A DNA stretch of 64,000 nucleotides from Flectonema sp. DT1601 (taxonomy: Eukaryota): positions 1,178,001-1,242,000 of the forward strand of contig OZ025794.1 of assembly GCA_964019425.1 (NCBI GenBank), read 5' to 3'. Positions 1 through 61,369 of this stretch are shown piece by piece. The notes under the pieces are model-generated. The model saw only the letters and a list, made by a program, of their open reading frames with translations. It was not told the origin of the DNA and made no database searches. Numbering within the stretch: position 1 is the first letter of the stretch; each line of letters begins with the position of its first letter. Both the position numbers and the translations under genes were made by a program.

Positions 1-2
1 GT

Positions 3-3000
3 AACTACTCCTCTCTTCAAGAAATGAGAGTTAGCACTTTTGACTTCTCAGATATGTACACCAACTTACCACATACAAAAATTAAAGCTGTTATTAATAC
101 ATTAGTCGAAGAATACATTGGAGACAATTTGATAGTTAGAGATAAACGAAGTCGAATTGGTAAAGATTTCTACTTGGCAAACGAATTTAACGAAGATGTG
201 CAAGTTGCTTACAACATAGAGGAGATCAAGGAACTACTGAATGTAATACTATCTAATTCTTATATTAAAAATGGTGACCATATGTTAAGGCAATGTCATG
301 GTATTCCAATGGGTTCTCAATGCTCTCCTCACATTGCTAATCTGTACTGCTTTGGTATCGAAAAGAACTGGATTGACAACATCATCCATAGCAATGGTTT
401 AAGTATTGCTAATGACAGGATAATCTTCAGATATATTGATGACTTTCTAATCTTTAGTAAGAATGAACCTACTCCACCTCCGCAAGCTGAATATCAAATG
501 TCATACACAGATACGTCACTTGGACGCAATGACATAGTTTTCCTAGGAATGAGAGTAAGATTTGAAGAAAGACCAAGAGGACATCCATTCATTCGTCTGT
601 CAATATGGGACAAAGAAAATCTGTTCAATTTTCAACCCATCAAATACACAAGCTCGACATCAAACGCACCAAGAAGCCTTGGTCCGGGCATATTGAAAGG
701 AGCCTTGTACAGAGCAGCAACCAATATCAACAATGACTTCGACTTATACTTGGAAATCGAAAAGGTGATTTACAGGCTACGCAGCCGAGGGTACTCGAAG
801 AAGAGCCTCTTCCCACAATACAAAGATTTCATTCTTAGTACATACTGGGATTTTCCGAAACAGAGAGATAACCTCCAGCAATTCTTTTTCAAGACAAATT
901 GGAGATATGACAAGGAACTACCCGTCACCTCTGAGAAGAAAACAATCCAACAGTACTACAAACTGAATGGACGAGATGACATTTATAACATGTTACTCGA
1001 TAAGAACGTTGGGTATGCAAAACTCAAAAAATGTAATAACACCATGGTTACTGCATTCCGGATTGCAAGTCACTCAATCACTAACAATCCAGATCAATGT
1101 CTAATATGTTCCACCGCAATAAACAAGAACACTGAGACACAGATTGATGCTTTGGATATTAAATATCGCAATGGGATATTTAAAGTAACCAAATTTTGCA
1201 AAGACTTCGACAAAATACTACCTGTTCCCATCAGTATTCTATCATACGACCAGGGTAAGACAACCCGTGAAATAATTAACAAACATGTGAATCACGAATG
1301 TCACATGGTTGTTGGTCGTACTAATGGAGGTTATTACTTTCCAATTACAAGTAAATATACGGAAAGTGATATTCAAAAAATCTTCCTCAAGGTTGACACG
1401 CCTGGAAAATCGGCGGAAGTTACAACAGAAGGGAAGTCAACTCCTAACACACCAGATACTGATGTAGTTATGACAGATAATACTACAGAAACGCAAGAAG
1501 ATGAAACGGAAAAATCTCAAACTGAAAAACCAGTTATGAAGAATGATAGAGGTCCTGAATGGGATATCTCGATCGATAAAAGGTTTCCTATTTCTATGCA
1601 CACTAAACCAGCTGAAGGCCTTAACAGCGGTGAGTGTGGTTGGGCCACCATTAATTTTATGGCTGATTATCTGAACATCGAGAGAATTCAGATATCTAAA
1701 GTCTTTAAGATTCAAGATGAGTTGGCAACACAAGAAATGAAGTGGTTAGGATTGGTTGAAATGTTCCAATTCAATCCTGATGGATGGTTTCACCAATTAG
1801 TCATATATGAGACAATTAAGATTCATCTGTCCTTAGAAATACACCATTGTACCAGCGCAGAAGATTTAGATAAAGTCAACAATATACTCAAAGAACAAAA
1901 CCTAAAACGCTTTCCATTCGTTATAATTACACGTAGATTAGCATACACTCACTATATCTTATTTATCGGAAAAGATACAGAGTATGCAGGATATGATATC
2001 ATTCAACACACTCCAAGTTATGAAACGTGGAACGACATTGCCAGGATATATCCTTTGGAAACATTTGACTATCACTTCGCATTCTGCCCTACAAAAAACA
2101 ATCCTATGGAGAAACTCCAATTTCCGAACCTCGACTATCCAACAATGGAGCCCCACATGGAAAACAAACAAGAGAAAGATACTCTTAGTCAAAAGACGAA
2201 TGATAACGATGACACAGCACTGTTATACGAGATGTTACAGAAATTTGAAGAGGATGATATCTCTACAACAGCTAAAGCCGCAGATCCATTGGATTTGAGA
2301 TCTTCGAATGAAAATACTACTCATAAGGAAGTCCTTCAAGAACCAAAGAAAGTCATTCAAGAACCGAAGGAAGTCATTCAAGAACCAAAGGAAGTCATTC
2401 AAGATCCAAAGAAAGTCATTCAAGATCCAAAGGAAGTCATTCAAGATCCAAAGAAAGTCATTCAAGATCCAAAGGAAGTCATTCAAGATCCAAAGGAAGT
2501 CATTCAAAATCCAGAGATAGATACACACCTAGATCCAAAAATAGGTCAGCAAGATGTGGATTTGGACGATAAGGAAGCAATAGGTGTTGCTAACAAGGCT
2601 TCTAAACCCAATACTCACTTCGACATCACTGATTACATAACTTCTGAAGATCAAAAGTCAAATGATTTTGTAAGTGGAACCACAAAGCTCACTAAGGTTC
2701 CCAATCATATCTTGAACACCAATCAGAATACTAACTTATGTCATATGGAATATGCTACACCAAATACCGATGTACATATGGAATCACCAATGACCACTAT
2801 TCTAACTGGTCCACTTTATAATACGGATACACAATTTAATTACGAAAATACAACACTTATAATTGCAACACCGCAGATTATACCAACCATCCCAAACTTT
2901 CGTAACCTATATCACAGCTCATCTGGGTGTCAAATCATGGCGGTATCACCTCCGAGAATATACAAAGTAAATACAATTGCTGCCATCTCACCCCCACAAG

Positions 3001-3059
3001 TCTATCACAACGGGGACAGCATTGTTGCCATCTCACCGCCAACTATCCTCCGATACTAA
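3..3059 (+). CDS. PLE reverse transcriptase polyprotein, 5'-truncated by the window: RT + CxxC/His cluster + Josephin-like domain + repeats
   Basis: The frame is open from position 3 (NYSSLQEMRVSTFDF), so the ATG at 24 is probably internal. YIDD at 432-443. Candidate protease triad: Cys 1635-1637, His 1950-1952, Asp 1995-1997. Confidence 0.85.
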   Translation, partial: NYSSLQEMRVSTFDFSDMYTNLPHTKIKAVINTLVEEYIGDNLIVRDKRSRIGKDFYLANEFNEDVQVAYNIEEIKELLNVILSNSYIKNGDHMLRQCHGIPMGSQCSPHIANLYCFGIEKNWIDNIIHSNGLSIANDRIIFRYIDDFLIFSKNEPTPPPQAEYQMSYTDTSLGRNDIVFLGMRVRFEERPRGHPFIRLSIWDKENLFNFQPIKYTSSTSNAPRSLGPGILKGALYRAATNINNDFDLYLEIEKVIYRLRSRGYSKKSLFPQYKDFILSTYWDFPKQRDNLQQFFFKTNWRYDKELPVTSEKKTIQQYYKLNGRDDIYNMLLDKNVGYAKLKKCNNTMVTAFRIASHSITNNPDQCLICSTAINKNTETQIDALDIKYRNGIFKVTKFCKDFDKILPVPISILSYDQGKTTREIINKHVNHECHMVVGRTNGGYYFPITSKYTESDIQKIFLKVDTPGKSAEVTTEGKSTPNTPDTDVVMTDNTTETQEDETEKSQTEKPVMKNDRGPEWDISIDKRFPISMHTKPAEGLNSGECGWATINFMADYLNIERIQISKVFKIQDELATQEMKWLGLVEMFQFNPDGWFHQLVIYETIKIHLSLEIHHCTSAEDLDKVNNILKEQNLKRFPFVIITRRLAYTHYILFIGKDTEYAGYDIIQHTPSYETWNDIARIYPLETFDYHFAFCPTKNNPMEKLQFPNLDYPTMEPHMENKQEKDTLSQKTNDNDDTALLYEMLQKFEEDDISTTAKAADPLDLRSSNENTTHKEVLQEPKKVIQEPKEVIQEPKEVIQDPKKVIQDPKEVIQDPKKVIQDPKEVIQDPKEVIQNPEIDTHLDPKIGQQDVDLDDKEAIGVANKASKPNTHFDITDYITSEDQKSNDFVSGTTKLTKVPNHILNTNQNTNLCHMEYATPNTDVHMESPMTTILTGPLYNTDTQFNYENTTLIIATPQIIPTIPNFRNLYHSSSGCQIMAVSPPRIYKVNTIAAISPPQVYHNGDSIVAISPPTILRY
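2325..2513 (+). repeat. Coding tandem repeat, 9 x 21 bp (K[E/K]V[I/L]Q[E/D/N]P)
   Basis: Unit close to AAGGAAGTCATTCAAGATCCA, repeated 9 times in frame within the RT ORF. Confidence 0.95.
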
Positions 3060-4866
3060 GAGTCCAACAGATGTTACTTCACCAACTCGGATGGATATTG
3101 ATATTGACACGGTGATTGCCGTCAATAACAGAAGTCTATATGATATTGACATCATCCCACCACCACATGTGGATACTCTTATAAGTGCCAAGAAAAAGAG
3201 TAACGACTCAATTCATAAAACTTGCCTTACCGATGTCGATACCAATAGCTACAACGAGATATCACCACCACAAACGGATGTACATATGTTGATCAATAAC
3301 AATGATCTCAACGTAATTGAGCCTATTGCACCACCACATACGGATGTTCATACGGTAATTAACAACAACAGTCTCGAGACATTCGAGTATATTTCACCAC
3401 CGCAGACTGGTATTCATATGCCTATAGTTATCGACAACAACAGTATCAACGCAAACGAACTTGCTTCACCACCACAAACTAATGTTCATATGGAGGTCAG
3501 AAACAATAGTCTCATTGCGACTGAGGCTATATCACCACCGTGTTTAGAAACACCTGAACATCGACATGTGTTTGAAACACCGGTAAAACAAAAGTCGGGA
3601 GGCAAAATCAAAACTCCGACAACCAACAAGATTGTCCCACAAGAACCACTAACTTGTTGGAATGGACACAATCGGGAGCTTATTTATGATTTAGCAATGA
3701 ATAGGCAACCTAACAAGATTGTTACAACATACACTGCACCATCGTTAAAAGTTACAACTCCGAAAACAGCAGCACGAAATAACACTGTTGTCATAGACAC
3801 AGAAGATAGTATGAACCCCGTAACTTCAATGCCGGAAAGTTTAAGTGATACCCTTGAACCTTGTTCAAAACGTAACAAAAAGTCCAATATACTGTCTCAT
3901 AAACATGCTATGAAGCAATCCAAAAAGAAAGCTTTCAATAATGGATCTCACGAGTCAATTATCCCTAAAACTAAAGTCATTACGCAATCACATACGCAGA
4001 TTAAGGATAAAACATCGGAACCTATCAATGAAGAATCTAGTAAGATACTTCCCCAACTTAAAGATGAAACCGGAAGTAAGAAAGATGAGACAACGTCGCA
4101 TGTTGAACTAGAAAAGGCAACAGAAGTTAATACAATAGTTGAGAACTCAATGACTGACGTGCCAACTACAACATCCTCGTCAGAACCATCCTACAAAGAT
4201 ACAACGCATATCAAGAGGAAATGTAAATATTGCTTCAAGACTAAAAAATCAATTATTGATCATGTCCACATATGCGCAATATTCAGAGCCTCAAAGGACT
4301 TTCCATATTACATGGATCATGATAATACAACGTATGAAGTTAACAACAGTGATGGCTCCAACAAGATCACAATGGTCATCAAGGAGAAGAAGAAACTAAA
4401 CGTGCGGTCTATCAAAAGAGGTGCAAAGCTAGTAACACAAATTCTTGAGAAAGAGGATAGTACACTAACTACACCAAAAAGAGATACCCGCAAAAGATTA
4501 AATTCTGAAAGTCCGATTCCAATAATCGAATTTAATGGATACATGGACAAGGACAAGAGAAAAAAGTTAGAGAATAAGAACGGATCTAAAAGTAAACGCA
4601 AGATCAAAGTTGAGGTTAATAAGATGCTAGTCGCTTCAGCAAAAAAGAAGGAGAAGTCGAAATATACAAAGAGATTAAATTCTGAAAGTCCTATGCAGCC
4701 GCTACTAAGAAAAGATGTACGAAAGAAACGAGCCAAACAAGAAGATATCAACACACCTAAAAGTGAAGATAAAGAGAACGTTACGAACATCTTAGATACT
4801 CCTTCGACTCCTGTTTTACATGATTTTGAAGATGTATCAGATTATGCATCAGATCTTGATAATTAA
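3040..4866 (+). CDS. Frameshifted continuation of the PLE ORF: ISPP repeats, CxxC...HxHxC zinc-finger-like motif, Lys-rich tail
   Basis: Overlaps ORF1 in the +1 frame. The [I/A]SPP motif series starts in ORF1 and continues here. KCKYCFKTKKSIIDHVHIC motif; KRLNSESP occurs twice. Confidence 0.7.
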   Translation, partial: QLSSDTKSPTDVTSPTRMDIDIDTVIAVNNRSLYDIDIIPPPHVDTLISAKKKSNDSIHKTCLTDVDTNSYNEISPPQTDVHMLINNNDLNVIEPIAPPHTDVHTVINNNSLETFEYISPPQTGIHMPIVIDNNSINANELASPPQTNVHMEVRNNSLIATEAISPPCLETPEHRHVFETPVKQKSGGKIKTPTTNKIVPQEPLTCWNGHNRELIYDLAMNRQPNKIVTTYTAPSLKVTTPKTAARNNTVVIDTEDSMNPVTSMPESLSDTLEPCSKRNKKSNILSHKHAMKQSKKKAFNNGSHESIIPKTKVITQSHTQIKDKTSEPINEESSKILPQLKDETGSKKDETTSHVELEKATEVNTIVENSMTDVPTTTSSSEPSYKDTTHIKRKCKYCFKTKKSIIDHVHICAIFRASKDFPYYMDHDNTTYEVNNSDGSNKITMVIKEKKKLNVRSIKRGAKLVTQILEKEDSTLTTPKRDTRKRLNSESPIPIIEFNGYMDKDKRKKLENKNGSKSKRKIKVEVNKMLVASAKKKEKSKYTKRLNSESPMQPLLRKDVRKKRAKQEDINTPKSEDKENVTNILDTPSTPVLHDFEDVSDYASDLDN

Positions 4867-5026
4867 TCATCTTATACTTTCTACATTTATTGTAGAAGAG
4901 TGCTCCACTAGTAGTGCGCTACGAACTAGTAATAACAAGAAGAATGTTTTTTTTATAAACATTATAACAAAGTAACTACATCCTAGTCTTGCTAACTAAG
5001 ATGCTTCAGTCACAACAGATGATTGA

Positions 5027-5094
5027 CTTACTTCTACACCATACTGATGATGAGAGAATAGAGGTAAGAGGTATATGGATTACTCTCGAAACCT
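5027..5094 (+). ncRNA. Hammerhead-ribozyme-like motif with non-canonical strand order
   Basis: Core CTGATGA 5044-5050 and GAAA 5088-5091. Stem I CCATA 5039-5043/TATGG 5074-5078. Stem II GAGAG 5052-5056/CTCTC 5083-5087. Stem III AGGT 5069-5072/ACCT 5091-5094. GUA cleavage triplet 5071-5073. Extra 10-bp helix 5027-5036/5059-5068. Confidence 0.7.
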
Positions 5095-5610
5095 AATAGT
5101 TACTTTAAAAGGCTAAGTTAAGCATCACACCTAGTCACTGTATCTCAGAACTAATGTTAAATTATCGTTATGTTTTTTATGATACAAAACATTTGTATTT
5201 TACGTACAAAATCAAACAGTTAACCCCCCAGACAGCACATATGTGTTGTCGATACTGACTGTTGGTCTTTTTTACATGGCAACCGGAATTGGTCGGACGC
5301 CACTTTAGTTTTAGCCAGTTTCAAGTTGCTTTCCATCCTTTAATATTAGTCTCAAGTTACCCCCTTCGCATCAGATACATATTCTAAAATGAAAGCTTAA
5401 GCTTCTGTCGTTTTTTCAGTTTAATTTTATTACTTATTTCAGTATTATAAAATTTCTTATTGTTTTCTACATTGTCAAACTATCACCCTTACTTCACATC
5501 AGATACATAAATTATTAAAAAAAACAAACAAACTATAATTAATATAAACCAAGAGAGCAAGAGAAAAGGAAACCTTTAAATATCCTTTTTCCTCTTTGTG
5601 TACTAGCAGT

Positions 5611-54312: not shown

Positions 54313-54544
54313 ATTTTTCATTCGTGTACACATTAGTCAGAGTAGTGTTCTAATGAAAGGAAATACGACTTCTAGTTGGATATTCAAAACAGTTTCAACA
54401 GGGTTAATGGACAACCAACAACATAAATATGTGAAATTACCTTGTTAGCTCTCACAGTGGTTGATTAGTTTTGTTTTGAATTTGATAATTATTTCTGAAC
54501 AGTTTACGTTTAGTCAACTAACCAACAAAACTAAAAAAAAGAAA

Positions 54545-55195
54545 ATGGGAAACTCTATGACTGGAGCATCAGAGATTAAGAGAACCAAACCATCAAGAGT
54601 AATGGACACTGACTCTGGAGTATTAAGTGATCCTGCACATATCAGAGGATGGATTCAAGGTAATGATGCTAACGCCATGTTAGTGAGATTACAAAGAGAA
54701 GTTCCATTTGAAAAGAATCCGAGATGGTCAGTCGGATATAAATTACCTCAAAGTGCTTACTACTATGATGAGAAGGCCAGAAAGAAGAATCCAATTCCTG
54801 TTCTCGAGGACTTAGCAATGGCTATGGAATCAAGTTTCAATTGTAATGTATTTACTATTTGGTGTAATCTATTTGAAGATGGTGGTTCTCATATTGAATG
54901 GCATCAAGACCAATATGGATATGATTGTTTTACTCTTTCTCTTGGAGCGACGAGAAGGTTTCTAATGAGACCGAAGGGAAAGAAGGAAATAATTGCCAGC
55001 TACGATCTCGCACACGGAGACGTTTATTTCTTCTCTCAAGATGCTGATAAGAGAAATGAGCATTCAGTTCCGAAAGATAGCTCATCGCTGTCAGCTGAAC
55101 GGTTGTCTATTTTATTCTTTGTTGACTTTCCTGGTAGCAAAGCTGAAGGATGGCACTACAACCCGAAGACTATCGATTACGGTAAAAGACGTTAA
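54545..55195 (+). CDS. AlkB-like 2OG-Fe(II) dioxygenase, copy 1 (216 aa)
   Basis: CNLFEDG..HIEWHQD, TLSLGATRRF, LAHGD, EHSVPK, RLSILF give the HxD...H triad and ALKBH2/3-type strands. N-terminus MGNS. Confidence 0.88.
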   Translation: MGNSMTGASEIKRTKPSRVMDTDSGVLSDPAHIRGWIQGNDANAMLVRLQREVPFEKNPRWSVGYKLPQSAYYYDEKARKKNPIPVLEDLAMAMESSFNCNVFTIWCNLFEDGGSHIEWHQDQYGYDCFTLSLGATRRFLMRPKGKKEIIASYDLAHGDVYFFSQDADKRNEHSVPKDSSSLSAERLSILFFVDFPGSKAEGWHYNPKTIDYGKRR

Positions 55196-55375
55196 TCAGA
55201 AGATGTGCTAATCATTACTGCCGACTTGTTTCTTATTTTTATTTCTCTTATTTCTTTAATTGGGGGGGGGACAATAAGCCTTTTTTTTGCCCCTCTATTT
55301 GCCAACTGTATCTGCCAACATTATTATTATTATTTTATTTTATTATTTTATTATCTTCTGAATTACTATAAGGCG

Positions 55376-55968
55376 GATGGCAGTACACTATGCCGTGATG
55401 GCAGTACAATATGCCGTGATGGCAGTACACTATGCCGTGATGGCAGTACACTATGCCGTGATGGCAGTACACTATGCCGTGATGGCAGTACACTATGCCG
55501 TGATGGCAGTACACTATGCCGTGATGGCAGTACACTATGCCGTGATGGCAGTACACTATGCCGTGATGGCAGTACACTATGCCGTGATGGCAGTACACTA
55601 TGCCGTGATGGCAGTACACTATGCCGTGATGGCAGTACACTATGCCGTGATGGCAGTACAATATGCCGTGATGGCAGTACAATATGCCGTGATGGCAGTA
55701 CACTATGCCGTGATGGCAGTACAATATGCCGTGATGGCAGTACACTATGCCGTGATGGCAGTACACTATGCCGTGATGGCAGTACACTATGCCGTGATGG
55801 CAGTACACTATGCCGTGATGGCAGTACACTATGCCGTGATGGCAGTACACTATGCCGTGATGGCAGTACACTATGCCGTGATGGCAGTACAATATGCCGT
55901 GATGGCAGTACAATATGCCGTGATGGCAGTACACTATGCCGTGATGGCAGTACAATATGCCGTGATGG
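55376..55968. repeat. Minisatellite, 28 x 21 bp (GATGGCAGTACA[C/A]TATGCCGT)
   Basis: Direct tandem units differing at a single C/A site; no spacers. Confidence 0.97.
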
Positions 55969-57045
55969 TATTATTTTCCCCCGACCAAATATCAATATAC
56001 CCGCACCTTTTTTCCATTCTACGGTGGAAACCATCAAGTTCTATAGAGAAGCTGCTGCTGACCGAAAGGTTTGGTGGTGACTGCCTCTATCAGAACTGCG
56101 GAAAAAAAGAGACAACCAACGTCTTGATGCTTTCAACTCTCGGGTGCGTACTTTCGGGTACTCCCTGTTGGTTAGAGTAACAAGGGATCTGGTTGATCCA
56201 GCTTTAATCTTTATTTTGTTCTCCTGATAAAGTAAGTTTTGTAAATGTAATGCTTGTTGACGAACCTCTGTTTTTTACTCATTCTTCTTCAATTAAGTAA
56301 AGTGAAAAAGATTTTCTCGTCGTCTGCTGAAGAAAAAGTTTTTACTGCCTGACGCCTACCTCCCTTTTTTGATTATTATACGAAAATATGAAATTCTTAT
56401 TTTTTTTTCAAGGAGAGAACCGATTTAAATAAAAAGTAGTTTTTTATCTACAATCTGTTTGCGTGATGTTTCGGCTCAATTTTGCCTGCACAAACTTCTA
56501 ATTACTAACTCAGTGAGTGTCATTTCTTCCTCTCTTTTCTTGTTATTTATTTCTCTTTTATCGATCATGGCTTTTGATCGATGTTTTCTTTTTATTAATT
56601 TGAATTAGTCTCCAACGTTTGTACAACTGGACGAGTTCTACGATTCGTATATTTATTTTATTTTATTGATCTTATTCTGTTTTAATTATGTTATAAAGAT
56701 ATAATACATTGACTCTTTAAATCTTTCCTCTGTTTGTTTTTGTTTCCTTCGGAACTGATGTTCAGTTGGGGAAGTTATTTTTATCCACTTGGCTTTGAGC
56801 TGAGGTGACAGTTTTTCTTTTTATTAGTTGTCTGCCCCGCTCACAAGCGAGTTCTTCTGAGCTCAGTCTTTGCGACTTCTCGTTGGTTATTCAGAACATT
56901 TTTAACAGGATTCGATATCAATAAAAAATATGTGAAATTACCTTCTTAGTTCTCACAGTGGTTGATTAGTTTTGTTTTGAATTTGATAATTATTTCTGAA
57001 CAGTTTGCGTTTAGTCAACTAACCAACAAAACCAAAAAAAAGAAA

Positions 57046-57696
57046 ATGGGAAACTACATGACTGGAGCATCAGTGATTAAGAGAACTAAACCATCAAGAG
57101 TAATGGACACTGACTCTGGAGTATTAAGTGATCCTGCACATATCAGAGGATGGATTCAAGGTAATGATGCTAACGCCATGTTAGTGAGATTACAAAGAGA
57201 AGTTCCATTTGAAAAGAATCCGAGATGGACAATCGGATATAAATTACCTCAAAGTGCTTACTACTATGATGAGAAGGCCAGAAAGAAGAATCCAATCCCT
57301 GTTCTCGAGGACTTAGCAACGGCTATGGAATCAAGTTTCAATTGTAATGTATTTACTATTTGGTGTAATCTATTTGAAGATGGTGGTTCTCATATTGAAT
57401 GGCATCAAGACCAATATGGATATGATTGTTTTACTCTTTCTCTTGGAGCAACGAGAAGGTTTCTAATGAGACCGAAGGGAAAGAAGGAAATAATTGCCAG
57501 CTACGATCTCGCACACGGAGACGTTTATTTCTTCTCTCAAGATGCTGATAAGAGAAATGAGCATTCAGTTCCGAAGGATAGCTCATCGCTGTCAGCTGAA
57601 CGGTTGTCTATTTTATTCTTTGTTGACTTTCCTGGTAGCAAAGCTGAAGGATGGCACTACAACCCGAAGACTATCGATTACGGTAAAAAGCGTTAA
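57046..57696 (+). CDS. AlkB-like 2OG-Fe(II) dioxygenase, copy 2 (216 aa)
   Basis: Near-identical to copy 1; N-terminus MGNY. Confidence 0.88.
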   Translation: MGNYMTGASVIKRTKPSRVMDTDSGVLSDPAHIRGWIQGNDANAMLVRLQREVPFEKNPRWTIGYKLPQSAYYYDEKARKKNPIPVLEDLATAMESSFNCNVFTIWCNLFEDGGSHIEWHQDQYGYDCFTLSLGATRRFLMRPKGKKEIIASYDLAHGDVYFFSQDADKRNEHSVPKDSSSLSAERLSILFFVDFPGSKAEGWHYNPKTIDYGKKR

Positions 57697-58772
57697 TCGG
57701 AAGATGTTTCTTATTTTTCTTTCTCTCATTTCTTTTATACACAAATTGGGGACACTAAGCCTTTTTCCCAACCATTACTGCAACGTTGTTATTTTATTTT
57801 ATTTTTATTATCTTCTGAATTACTATAAAGCAAAATGGCAGTACACTATGCCACAATGTTATTATTATTTCTCTACGCCTTTTTTTCAATTGCAACTTTA
57901 GTCTTTATTTTGTTCTCCTGATAAGGTTTGGAACATGTAATGATGGTTGACAAAACTCTCTTTTTTTCCCAATTCGTCCCCTCTTCCGTATTGTTTTTAT
58001 TTCTTCAGATATAAAAAATAAATAAATTAACAAAATCGGATTCCCCGTTGTTCTGTTCTGTTCTGGCCAAGTATTGTTGGGGGCTGGAATAATAATCTAT
58101 AAAAAATAATTTAAAAAAAAAAAAAAAAAACTGCCTGACGCCTACCTCCCTTTTTTGAATATTATACCAAAATGTGAAATATTGTTATTTTGATAAATTA
58201 TGCACCGACTGGGTCGAAGAAGAAACTATTCAGATTCAGGGAAATGTTATCTATTTCTCTGTGCGCCTGTCTGCGATCAACAAAACAAAATATATAAATC
58301 TTTATCCGGATGGTTTGAAAAGTAGTTTTTATCTACAATCTGTTTGTGTGATGTTTCGGTTCAATTTTGCCTGCACAAACTTCTAATTACTAACTCAGTG
58401 AGTGTCATTTCCTCCTCTGTTTTCTTGTTATTTATTTCTCTTTTATCGATCATGGCTTTTGATCGATGTTTTCTTCAATTTGTTCGACCCCGCTCAAAGC
58501 GAGTTCTTCTGAGCTCATCGCCTGTGTTAGCTGGTGACGGCCTGCTGGTGTCTGCCTACTCAAAAGTGAGTTCTTCTGAGCTCAGTCTTTGCGACTTCTC
58601 TTTGTTTATTAAGCATTTTCAACAGGATTTTATAGACAACCGTCGGCAACAAAAAATATGTGAAATTACCTTGTTAGTTCTCACAGTGGTTGATTAGTTT
58701 TGTTTTGAATTTGATAATTATTTCTGAACAGTTTACGTTTAGTCAACTAACCAACAAAACTAAAAAAAAAAA

Positions 58773-59423
58773 ATGGGAAACTCTATGACTGGAGCATCAG
58801 CGATTAAGAGAACTAAACCATCAAGAGTAATGGACACTGACTCTGGAGTATTAAGTGATCCTGCACATATCAGAGGATGGATTCAAGGTAATGATGCTAA
58901 CGCCATGTTAGTGAGATTACAAAGAGAAGTTCCATTTGAAAAGAATCCGAGATGGTCAGTCGGATATAAATTACCTCAAAGTGCTTACTACTATGATGAG
59001 AAGGCCAGAAAGAAGAATCCAATCCCTGTTCTCGAGGACTTAGCAATGGCTATGGAATCAAGTTTCAATTGTAATGTATTTACTATTTGGTGTAATTTAT
59101 TTGAAGATGGTGGTTCTCATATTGAATGGCATCAAGACCAATATGGATATGATTGTTTTACTCTTTCTCTTGGAGCAACGAGAAGGTTTCTAATGAGACC
59201 GAAGGGAAAGAAGGAAATAATTGCCAGCTACGATCTCGCACACGGAGACGTTTATTTCTTCTCTCAAGATGCTGATAAGAGAAATGAGCATTCAGTTCCG
59301 AAGGATAGCTCATCGCTGTCAGCTGAACGGTTGTCTATTTTATTCTTTGTTGACTTTCCTGGTAGCAAAGCTGAAGGATGGCACTACAACCCGAAGACTA
59401 TCGATTACGGTAAAAAGCGTTAA
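58773..59423 (+). CDS. AlkB-like 2OG-Fe(II) dioxygenase, copy 3 (216 aa)
   Basis: Near-identical to copy 1; N-terminus MGNS. Confidence 0.88.
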   Translation: MGNSMTGASAIKRTKPSRVMDTDSGVLSDPAHIRGWIQGNDANAMLVRLQREVPFEKNPRWSVGYKLPQSAYYYDEKARKKNPIPVLEDLAMAMESSFNCNVFTIWCNLFEDGGSHIEWHQDQYGYDCFTLSLGATRRFLMRPKGKKEIIASYDLAHGDVYFFSQDADKRNEHSVPKDSSSLSAERLSILFFVDFPGSKAEGWHYNPKTIDYGKKR

Positions 59424-59583
59424 TCGGAAGATGTTCCTATTTTTCTTTCTCTCATTTCTTTTATACACATAGGGGGCAGTAATTCTTTATTGCACTACTG
59501 ACATTAATCTAGTACCCTGTGCTAGTTGTCGTTGTGCCATGAAAGTCTTTCTTGTGATAAGTGTCACATGCTTCCCTTCCCTT

Positions 59584-59618
<35 letters not shown>

Positions 59619-60718
59619 GAAGATTTTTTCAGATTCACCTGCCTTAATTACTATTACTGAAAAAAAAAGAGACAAGAAAAAAGGGTTTATTTTCCCTTCT
59701 TTTCATTCTCTTTTTCTCGATCTTCTTTTTTTTTTCCTCCCTTTTCGCATGTTTAAAAAAACGCAGAGGGTGTGGGTGTCTTATGTTTTAAGCAGCTTCG
59801 CTTTCGTTAAAAATAATATCAGAAAGCCAAAACTTAGGTGCCCACGCTGCTGCTGTCAACGTTGTTTCTTTTTTTTTTTTTTGAATTACTATAAAGCAAA
59901 ATGGCAGTACACTATGCCACGATGTTATTATTATTTCCCTACGCCTTTTTTTCAATTACAACTTTAATCTTTATTTTGTTCTCCTGATAAAGTTTGGAAC
60001 ATGTAATGATGGTTGACAAAACTCTCTTTTTCCCCCAGTCTTCCGTATTGTTTTTATTTCTCGAGATTTGAAAAAAAAAAAAAAAAAAAAAAAAAAGAAA
60101 TTTAACAAGTTCTGTTCTAGCCAAATATTGTTACTTGGATGCTGGAATAATATAAACAAAAAAAACGGCAAAAAAGAATAAAAAAATGTCTCATCGTTTA
60201 TTGAAAAAAAAAAAAAGTTTTACTGCCTGGAACCTCCCTTTTTGACCAAAGGTGGCCTTTTTTTTGTTGTTGTCTTTTTTCAAAAGAAGAAGGGAAGTGG
60301 ATCGATTTAAATAAAATCTGTTTGTGTGATGTTTCGGCTCAATTTTGCCTGCACAAACTTCTAATTACTAACTCAGTGAGTGTCATTTCTTCCTCTCTTT
60401 TCTTGTTATTTTCTTTTTATTGTCATGGCTTTTGATTGATATGTTTTTTTTTTGAAAGGGGTTGTCAACCGGTGCGAAACCAGTTCGGGAGAAATTTCCC
60501 TTTTCGCTCTCATCAATCGAAGTTATTAAGTGACTTGAATTGTGGTAATCTTTTTTTTTAAAATTTATTTTATAAAAACTATTTTCACACACACAGATCC
60601 GTTAACAAACAATAGTATGAAATAAGCAACTCTAACTCATTTCGTATCAACAGATGACAGAAGACATTTCATTACATTAAACACCGTACACTCCACAGAT
60701 AACATTTTTGTTTTCAAT

Positions 60719-61369
60719 ATGGGGAATTGCTGCAACAGTAACCCTTCGTTTCAGAGAATAAAACCGTCAGCAGTACTTGACAGCGATACAAATGTTTTAA
60801 GTGATCCTGCTGTAGTAAGAAAATGGATGTCAGAGTCAGAGGCTGATAAGATGTTCGTTAGACTCGAAGACAACGTTCCGTTTGAAAAAAATCCGAGATG
60901 GTCATTACTGTATAAATTACCTCAAAGTGCTTACTACTATGATGAGAAGGCCAGAAAGAAGAATCCAATTCCTGTTCTCGAGGACTTAGCAATGGCTATG
61001 GAATCAAGTTTCAATTGTAATGTATTTACTATTTGGTGTAATTTATTTGAAGACGGTAATGACTATATTGAATGGCATCAAAACCAATATGGATATGATT
61101 GTTTTACTCTTTCTCTTGGAGTTACGAGAAAGTATCACATGCGCTCGAAAAAAAACAAAAAAAACAAAAAAACATACAATCTCTCTAACGGAGATGTTTT
61201 CTTCGTCTCTCAAGATGCTGATCGCAAAAATGAACATTCGCTTCCCAAAGACAAAAAATCACAAATGGGAATGAGGATTTCTATTTTATTTTTCGTCGAC
61301 TTTCCCAACAGCAAACAACACGGGTGGCGGTATAATCCTCAGACAATTGACTATATAAGTGTAAAGTAA
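60719..61369 (+). CDS. AlkB-like 2OG-Fe(II) dioxygenase, divergent copy 4 (216 aa; HxN instead of HxD; MGNCC N-terminus)
   Basis: Same length and fold motifs, diverged termini, central part almost identical to copies 1-3; AAC (Asn) at 61082-61084. Confidence 0.85.
   Translation: MGNCCNSNPSFQRIKPSAVLDSDTNVLSDPAVVRKWMSESEADKMFVRLEDNVPFEKNPRWSLLYKLPQSAYYYDEKARKKNPIPVLEDLAMAMESSFNCNVFTIWCNLFEDGNDYIEWHQNQYGYDCFTLSLGVTRKYHMRSKKNKKNKKTYNLSNGDVFFVSQDADRKNEHSLPKDKKSQMGMRISILFFVDFPNSKQHGWRYNPQTIDYISVK

Follow-up and report, generated by a model that had tools for sequence, protein, structure and literature searches.

A predicted type-CSG hammerhead and four candidate same-order flanking helices in the 3′ tail of a Penelope-like retroelement

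What is to be made of a ribozyme-like core that is flanked by four helices whose partners return in the same order, and not in mirrored order? The question arises at positions 4969-5126 of a 64,000-nucleotide stretch of Flectonema sp. DT1601 DNA (contig OZ025794.1, positions 1,178,001 to 1,242,000, forward strand), which is called the window throughout. A first-pass annotation, made from the letters of the sequence, described the arrangement as a multi-pseudoknot of ~160 nt, a set of alternative conformers, or a scaffold for multimers. Any answer must consider the element in which the segment lies, the core itself, the probability that the flanking helices arose by chance, and whether they can exist together in three dimensions.

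The window opens on the + strand within the 3′ part of a Penelope-like ORF (1..4866), comprising reverse transcriptase (RT; PF00078), thumb, and a long C-terminal extension. A frameshift near 3050 splits this copy into ORFs 3-3059 and 2977-4866. The window begins inside the RT and a second copy is absent within its 64 kb; at 90% identity the element protein falls into a cluster of 35, and other contigs hold intact ORFs of 1921-1943 aa. Diverged families also exist, among them P0049-P0051 (73-83% identical) and P0052 (48%). One intact member, P0011 (1943 aa), carries the motifs CKCH (CxC), KGARY (GxKF/Y-like, with R for K), and IDKT (DK) upstream of the RT, as expected of an RT of the Penelope-like element (PLE) type. 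A GIY-YIG domain was not detected in P0011 or P0012, both of which begin near CxC or later; it is found at the N-terminus, upstream of the RT, in relatives P0064 and P0075, and also in P0002 and P0003. Because of the CxC and DK motifs, and the N-terminal GIY-YIG of relatives, we place the element with Naiad/Chlamys. Within that group DKT, the long ORF, and the protease-like extension lean toward the Chlamys rather than the Naiad subclade, a placement made on these characters and not on a tree. The closest named relatives of the protein are from Diplonema papillatum and Flectonema neradi (~33-42% identity); relatives in D. papillatum include KAJ9462022.1 and KAJ9458625.1. From these relatives and from the leishmanolysin domain encoded by the gene that follows the element, we take the host to be a likely diplonemid, and so probably a marine protist.

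The C-terminal extension deserves a brief comment. Penelope-like ORFs of the diplonemid clade end in a protease of deubiquitinase-like type: among P0065, P0067-P0069, P0072, P0075, P0078, and P0080, it is UCH (PF00443) in seven relatives and Josephin in P0080. With P0070 the window ORF shares a GECGW...HYIL stretch, with no Pfam match there. It also contains in-frame tandem repeats at ~2310-2540 and 3260-3540, made of 7-aa units, whose number varies among copies, and of longer SPP-containing units. Public records label some of these Penelope-like relatives ubiquitin hydrolase or kinesin.

The core lies downstream of the ORF, 178 nt from the stop codon, a location typical of PLE hammerheads (PMC4209133), and consists of three blocks on the + strand. 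Block C (5039-5056) holds the 5′ strand of stem I (5039-5043), CUGAUGA (5044-5050), an unpaired U5051, and the 5′ strand of stem II (5052-5056). Block S (5069-5078) holds one strand of stem III (5069-5072), a cut predicted by analogy after A5073, and the 3′ strand of stem I (5074-5078). Block G (5083-5094) holds the 3′ strand of stem II (5083-5087), GAAA (5088-5091), and the second strand of stem III (5091-5094). The CUGAnGA and GAAA motifs and an NUH cut triplet (GUA, 5071-5073) are thus all present, and stems I, II, and III abut the core with 5, 5, and 4 bp, with a G-C pair at the base of II and an A-U pair at the base of III. A further helix, e (5027-5036 with 5059-5068; 10 bp, one G-U), read from the sequence and recovered by nested folding, joins stems I and II as in type-CSG hammerheads. 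The 5′-3′ order of the blocks is C, S, G, so the suggestion that the core has a crossing order of its own agrees with the published type-CSG permutation.

A descriptor of this fold matched once in the window and nowhere else across 80 viral loci; on 300 shuffled windows it gave 3 matches with stems of 4/4/4 and none at the observed 5/5/4, and on intergenic shuffles 1 in 20000. The Rfam hammerhead families (types I-III) gave no match at gathering score nor to E=10, which is expected because the stem order crosses. In our view the core is, with high likelihood, a hammerhead of type CSG that occurs in a new setting, a retroelement tail; self-cleavage is predicted, and we think it highly probable that the ribozyme works.

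How close is the likeness to characterised examples? Eckert et al. 2023 (PMC10085705), in the available part of their article, describe two similar CSG sequences from soil metagenomes, CSG-1 and CSG-2, both of which cleave (0.004 and 0.03 per min), and rate the evidence for biological relevance as weaker for CSG than for type SGC. The tail described here shares with these RNAs the C-S-G order, every base of the core, three stems that cross, a helix that links stem I to stem II, and a short I′-to-II′ link (PMC10085705). It differs from them in the unpaired U after CUGAUGA, the GUA triplet, a 4-bp stem III that abuts e without a linker, and the four outer same-order helices. It also differs in origin: the published sequences are soil-metagenome DNA with no host element named in that part of the article (PMC10085705), whereas here the host is the retroelement of a protist.

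The other comparison is with the element family. In the part of Craig et al. 2021 (PMC8557442) available, Naiad/Chlamys elements are reported to lack a canonical hammerhead, and 8 "half cores" are flagged and not parsed. The present element resembles these families in having CxC and DK before the RT, a long ORF with a C-terminal extension as in the Chlamys of Chara, an N-terminal GIY-YIG (here in close relatives), and a 3′ UTR hammerhead core with widely spaced halves (PMC8557442); a euglenozoan family was not found among the Naiad/Chlamys families in that part of the paper. Motif matches occur at 28 places in the portion of its supplement covered; among them, five 3′ tails of Naiad elements can be read by eye as full CSG folds. 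These distant tails retain the order e-I-core-II-e′-III′-cut-I′-II′-GAAA-III, which is common to the window and to the cleaving CSG-1/2, and they do so with other stem sequences; their helix e is 8-13 bp long, and one has the same unpaired U. Three of the five adjoin nematode record names, names having been confirmed for fewer than five. Two octopus Naiads have the S-G-C order, and the remaining places are coding, canonical type I, or unparsed. One might guess that the soil-DNA CSG-1/2 of Eckert et al. derive from Naiad-type elements in soil animals.

We can now turn to the outer helices. Every segment was re-read and pairs as the first-pass annotation had it: a (4969-4978 with 5097-5106; 10 Watson-Crick pairs), b (4984-4990 with 5109-5115; 7 bp, one G-U), c (4993-4997 with 5116-5120; 5 bp), and d (5000-5005 with 5121-5126; 6 bp), in the order a-b-c-d ... 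a′-b′-c′-d′. Successive helices are separated by 5, 2, and 2 nt among their 5′ strands and by 2, 0, and 0 nt among their 3′ strands, so that after a′ come b′, c′, and d′ in an unbroken stretch of 18 nt (5109-5126). A seventh pair for d is possible only at the cost of A5120, taken from c. Helix c has TAACT in common with part of a, so the two are not independent. Between these segments and the ribozyme sits a hairpin, hp, which had been given as 6 bp (5007-5012/5020-5025); it is present, and its extent is 7 bp (5006-5012/5020-5026). Two further same-order complements lie past d′, 5068-5075/5139-5146 (8 bp, which would cover the cut site) and 5024-5028/5133-5137; complements after d′ are within the local background in strength.

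Would such a chain be expected in AT-rich sequence anyway? We scored the best chain of same-order helices by stacking energy, allowing gaps of up to 6 nt, against dinucleotide shuffles. The observed 28-bp chain was equalled in 5/2000 shuffles with flanks of 87 and 86 nt and in 7/500 with flanks of 160 nt, so four ordered complements, whose frequency in shuffled sequence had been raised as a possible objection, are not common there. Under the further requirement, imposed post hoc, that the chain reach the ribozyme domain at both of its edges, none of 3000 shuffles did as well. The real 5′ flank set against a shuffled 3′ flank did so in 1/3000, and among natural AT-rich positions of the window 3/751 did, two of these being simple repeats. 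Among nested chains, the best one here does not stand out, being equalled in 315/2000 shuffles. Because a can be explained as a plain closing stem, b-c-d were tested separately with a taken as given; 27 and 2 of 10000 shuffles matched them when anchored, 49 and 31 of 10000 when unanchored, and 27/5000 when either order was permitted. The chain is therefore clearly beyond chance for a single locus. It is not overwhelmingly so for a scan, since a large one could still meet a factor of the size found for b-d (~1-in-200 to 1-in-5000).

Secondary structure prediction tells a different story for a than for b, c, and d. In the nested ensemble a has pair probabilities of 0.79-1.0, and hp, e, and stem III are likewise high; b, c, and d stand at 0.0 in a model that has no means of scoring helices that cross, and in which stems I and II receive the same value. 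The place of b-d is taken by a local hairpin of 8 bp with one C-A mismatch (4979-4987/4995-5003; pair probability 0.92-0.99) that is mutually exclusive with all three. It contributes about 6 kcal/mol: a with hp and e comes to -21.9 kcal/mol, and to -28.1 with the local hairpin. There is also a nested 18-bp alternative (-22.4 kcal/mol), which exists because TAACT sits in both a and c. The local hairpin, this alternative, and helix e add to the features annotated earlier. That a closes the ribozyme domain is, in our judgment, highly probable.

The strongest competitor follows directly from this folding. It holds that a CSG hammerhead is closed by a alone, in a five-way junction of a, the local hairpin, hp, e, and stem III, and that b, c, and d are chance products of a sequence in which TAACT and TAG keep recurring. 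This junction is both the minimum-energy fold and the dominant nested one, and c does repeat part of a. By eye, moreover, no comparable chain flanks the CSG cores of the five Naiad tails in the supplement portion used, two of whose consensus sequences stop right after stem III. Against it stand the rarity of b-c-d among shuffles once a is given, and the fact that b′c′d′ form one gap-free run following a′. The local hairpin that it puts in their place is itself unremarkable (equalled or bettered in 183/2000 shuffles). We consider this account a serious possibility, if a somewhat unlikely one, and think it probable, by a modest degree, that b-d are selected pairings.

If they are selected, can they coexist? 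We built coarse models from rigid A-form helices and linker limits, in which linkers are straight lines, so that the models show only that a fold is possible. The A-form fibre parameters used reproduce the known span of 10 Å across the deep groove at 6-7 bp. Helices a and b fit together, as do c and d. Helices b and c, at their full lengths of 7 and 5 bp, fail to (0/25 with ideal helices, 0/15 under looser limits), their linkers being only 2 and 0 nt; it is enough that a single terminal pair, whichever it is, opens in either helix, and 11-14 of 15 models then fit. With b at 6 bp, a-d were feasible in 102/197 starts, of which 18 were unknotted and 84 knotted, and the core was feasible in 37/133, all unknotted. 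The whole fold was clash-free in 1/20 unstaged random starts (1/9 and 0/11) and, with staged docking, in 9/12, five of them unknotted. The multi-pseudoknot of ~160 nt thus holds up as geometrically possible with one terminal pair of b or c open; against it, nested folding prefers a plus the local hairpin, which excludes b-d. Coaxial stacking of b, c, and d along the contiguous 3′ run was ruled out by reasoning, as a 2-nt linker cannot span 12 bp.

The strain between b and c is one reason to consider a switch, in which the pairings are selected and a-d are never all together: the RNA would alternate between b-d, the local hairpin, and the 18-bp nested stem, timing or gating cleavage or product release. 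The three mutually exclusive states whose energies are given above share the same bases, and the 8-bp helix 5068-5075/5139-5146 would mask the cut. Helices of that strength are, however, common in the region, and neither the nested alternative nor the local hairpin does better than shuffles. We think a switch improbable.

Pairing in trans, by which the blocks would join element RNAs into dimers or small networks, is less probable again. It would remove the knotting and strain seen in the models, and dimeric PLE hammerheads have been described (PMC4209133). Yet in trans, too, same-order blocks fail to give a single collinear duplex; the three stems of the core all form in cis, and models of a monomeric core are feasible and free of knots. 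Least credible of all is an origin of the 3′ flank by direct duplication of the 5′ flank and later decay, with near-palindromic words yielding same-order complements: short direct matches do occur at offsets of 121-127 nt (around a/a′, at 4991-5001/5112-5122, and at 5008-5013/5133-5138), but the direct-repeat score is ordinary (reached by 1860/5000 shuffles), and as the origin of the chain duplication was rejected when 0/9000 simulated duplicates reached it.

The reading that we prefer, giving it an even chance, is that 4969-5126 is the 3′ tail of a multi-copy Penelope-like element, in which a CSG core is combined with same-order blocks that clamp the two predicted cut ends. All four helices span the cut, because after cleavage at 5073 the 5′ piece has a-d and the 3′ piece a′-d′. 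Whether b-d form together as such an end clamp is a question on which we stand evenly divided. In its favor, each module (the core and a-d) has a 10-bp helix that would form first, the later crossing helices being no longer than 7 bp, and the longest linkers come after the longest helix. Against it are the zero value of b-d in nested folding, the b-c strain, and the knotting of most feasible a-d models (84/102).

How might the end clamp work? The RNA would fold from 5′ to 3′, forming the local hairpin, hp, and e, and then stems I, II, and III; it would then cut. Helix a would close the domain, and the contiguous b′c′d′ run would open the local hairpin and pack b, c, and d next to one another, a single terminal pair being frayed. 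PLE hammerheads lie in repeated ends (PMC4209133), and because of this each end of the unit RNA would bear one half of the ribozyme. As known PLE structure suggests for a partial tandem (pLTR), the unit would be cut at both copies, starting with I′-II′-III-a′-b′-c′-d′ and ending with a-b-c-d-hp-e-I-II-e′-III′. About 27 clamp pairs and 14 core pairs could then hold the 5′-OH and cyclic-phosphate ends for ligation, probably by an RtcB-type ligase, to yield a circular template. Short same-order blocks would achieve this end-holding without a long double helix.

Several elements of this scheme have precedent. For retrozyme monomers, one report has RtcB circularising far better than self-ligation (PMC7229834), and an unpaired base 5′ of stem II is a known variant in PLE hammerheads (PMC4209133). 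The terminal-repeat location, the unpaired base, and the proposed cut-and-circularise route are all shared with the type I hammerheads of PLEs and retrozymes (PMC4209133, PMC7229834). Those differ in being circularly permuted and nested, and often dimers; the present fold crosses, needs only one molecule to be complete, and is surrounded by an outer chain (PMC4209133, PMC7229834).

As to the chain itself, same-order helices pack side by side in H-type pseudoknots and in engineered crossover RNA; an H-type pseudoknot has two, and here there are four in series. A natural case with four same-order blocks was not found in a search of the open-access literature at the level of titles. A bolder proposal, which we put forward tentatively and rate as rather unlikely in its entirety, is that the 158-nt tail is a single fold, with the core and four outer helices crossing in series as a side-by-side raft, perhaps with an interlocking strand, that locks the cut ends for circularisation, and that CSG is a standard tail ribozyme of Naiad/Chlamys from nematodes to diplonemids.

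What would follow? The thinly documented type-CSG hammerhead would gain a biological home, and CSG tails would explain part of why Naiad/Chlamys elements seemed to be without hammerheads. If a-d are true, a serial same-order clamp is an unusual natural architecture. A 160-nt construct makes it testable how Penelope-like RNAs join their ends for circles and pseudo-LTRs.

Searches for homologous tails were conducted in several collections. On viral contigs, a loose core pattern gave 80 loci, none with stems, the published CSG-1/2 motif gave none, and RT alignments gave 79 and 72 pattern matches, none related; a tight core pattern gave none in metagenomes. A flank homologous to a-d was not found in the viral, prokaryote, and metagenome searches, which we count against the end clamp. 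A degenerate RT pattern returned no viral and no prokaryote loci and six metagenome loci, whose long RT stretches are about 24-36% identical. Of the six, L083 alone extends far past the RT; none of four sites with CUGAnGA near GAAA parses by eye as CSG. On the - strand of L083, a distant relative, purine-rich tandem repeats at ~1020-1590 lie between the RT ORF and a second ORF, with no hammerhead core seen.

Finally, the rest of the window has features of its own. A giant gene on the + strand (~5611-38329), a single ORF exceeding 10,000 codons, encodes a leishmanolysin (M8) domain at its N-terminus and numerous cysteine-rich repeats. Further along, 54449-61369 holds a gene present in four copies, putatively AlkB-like, and ~55370-55970 a 21-nt tandem repeat that is open in several frames.
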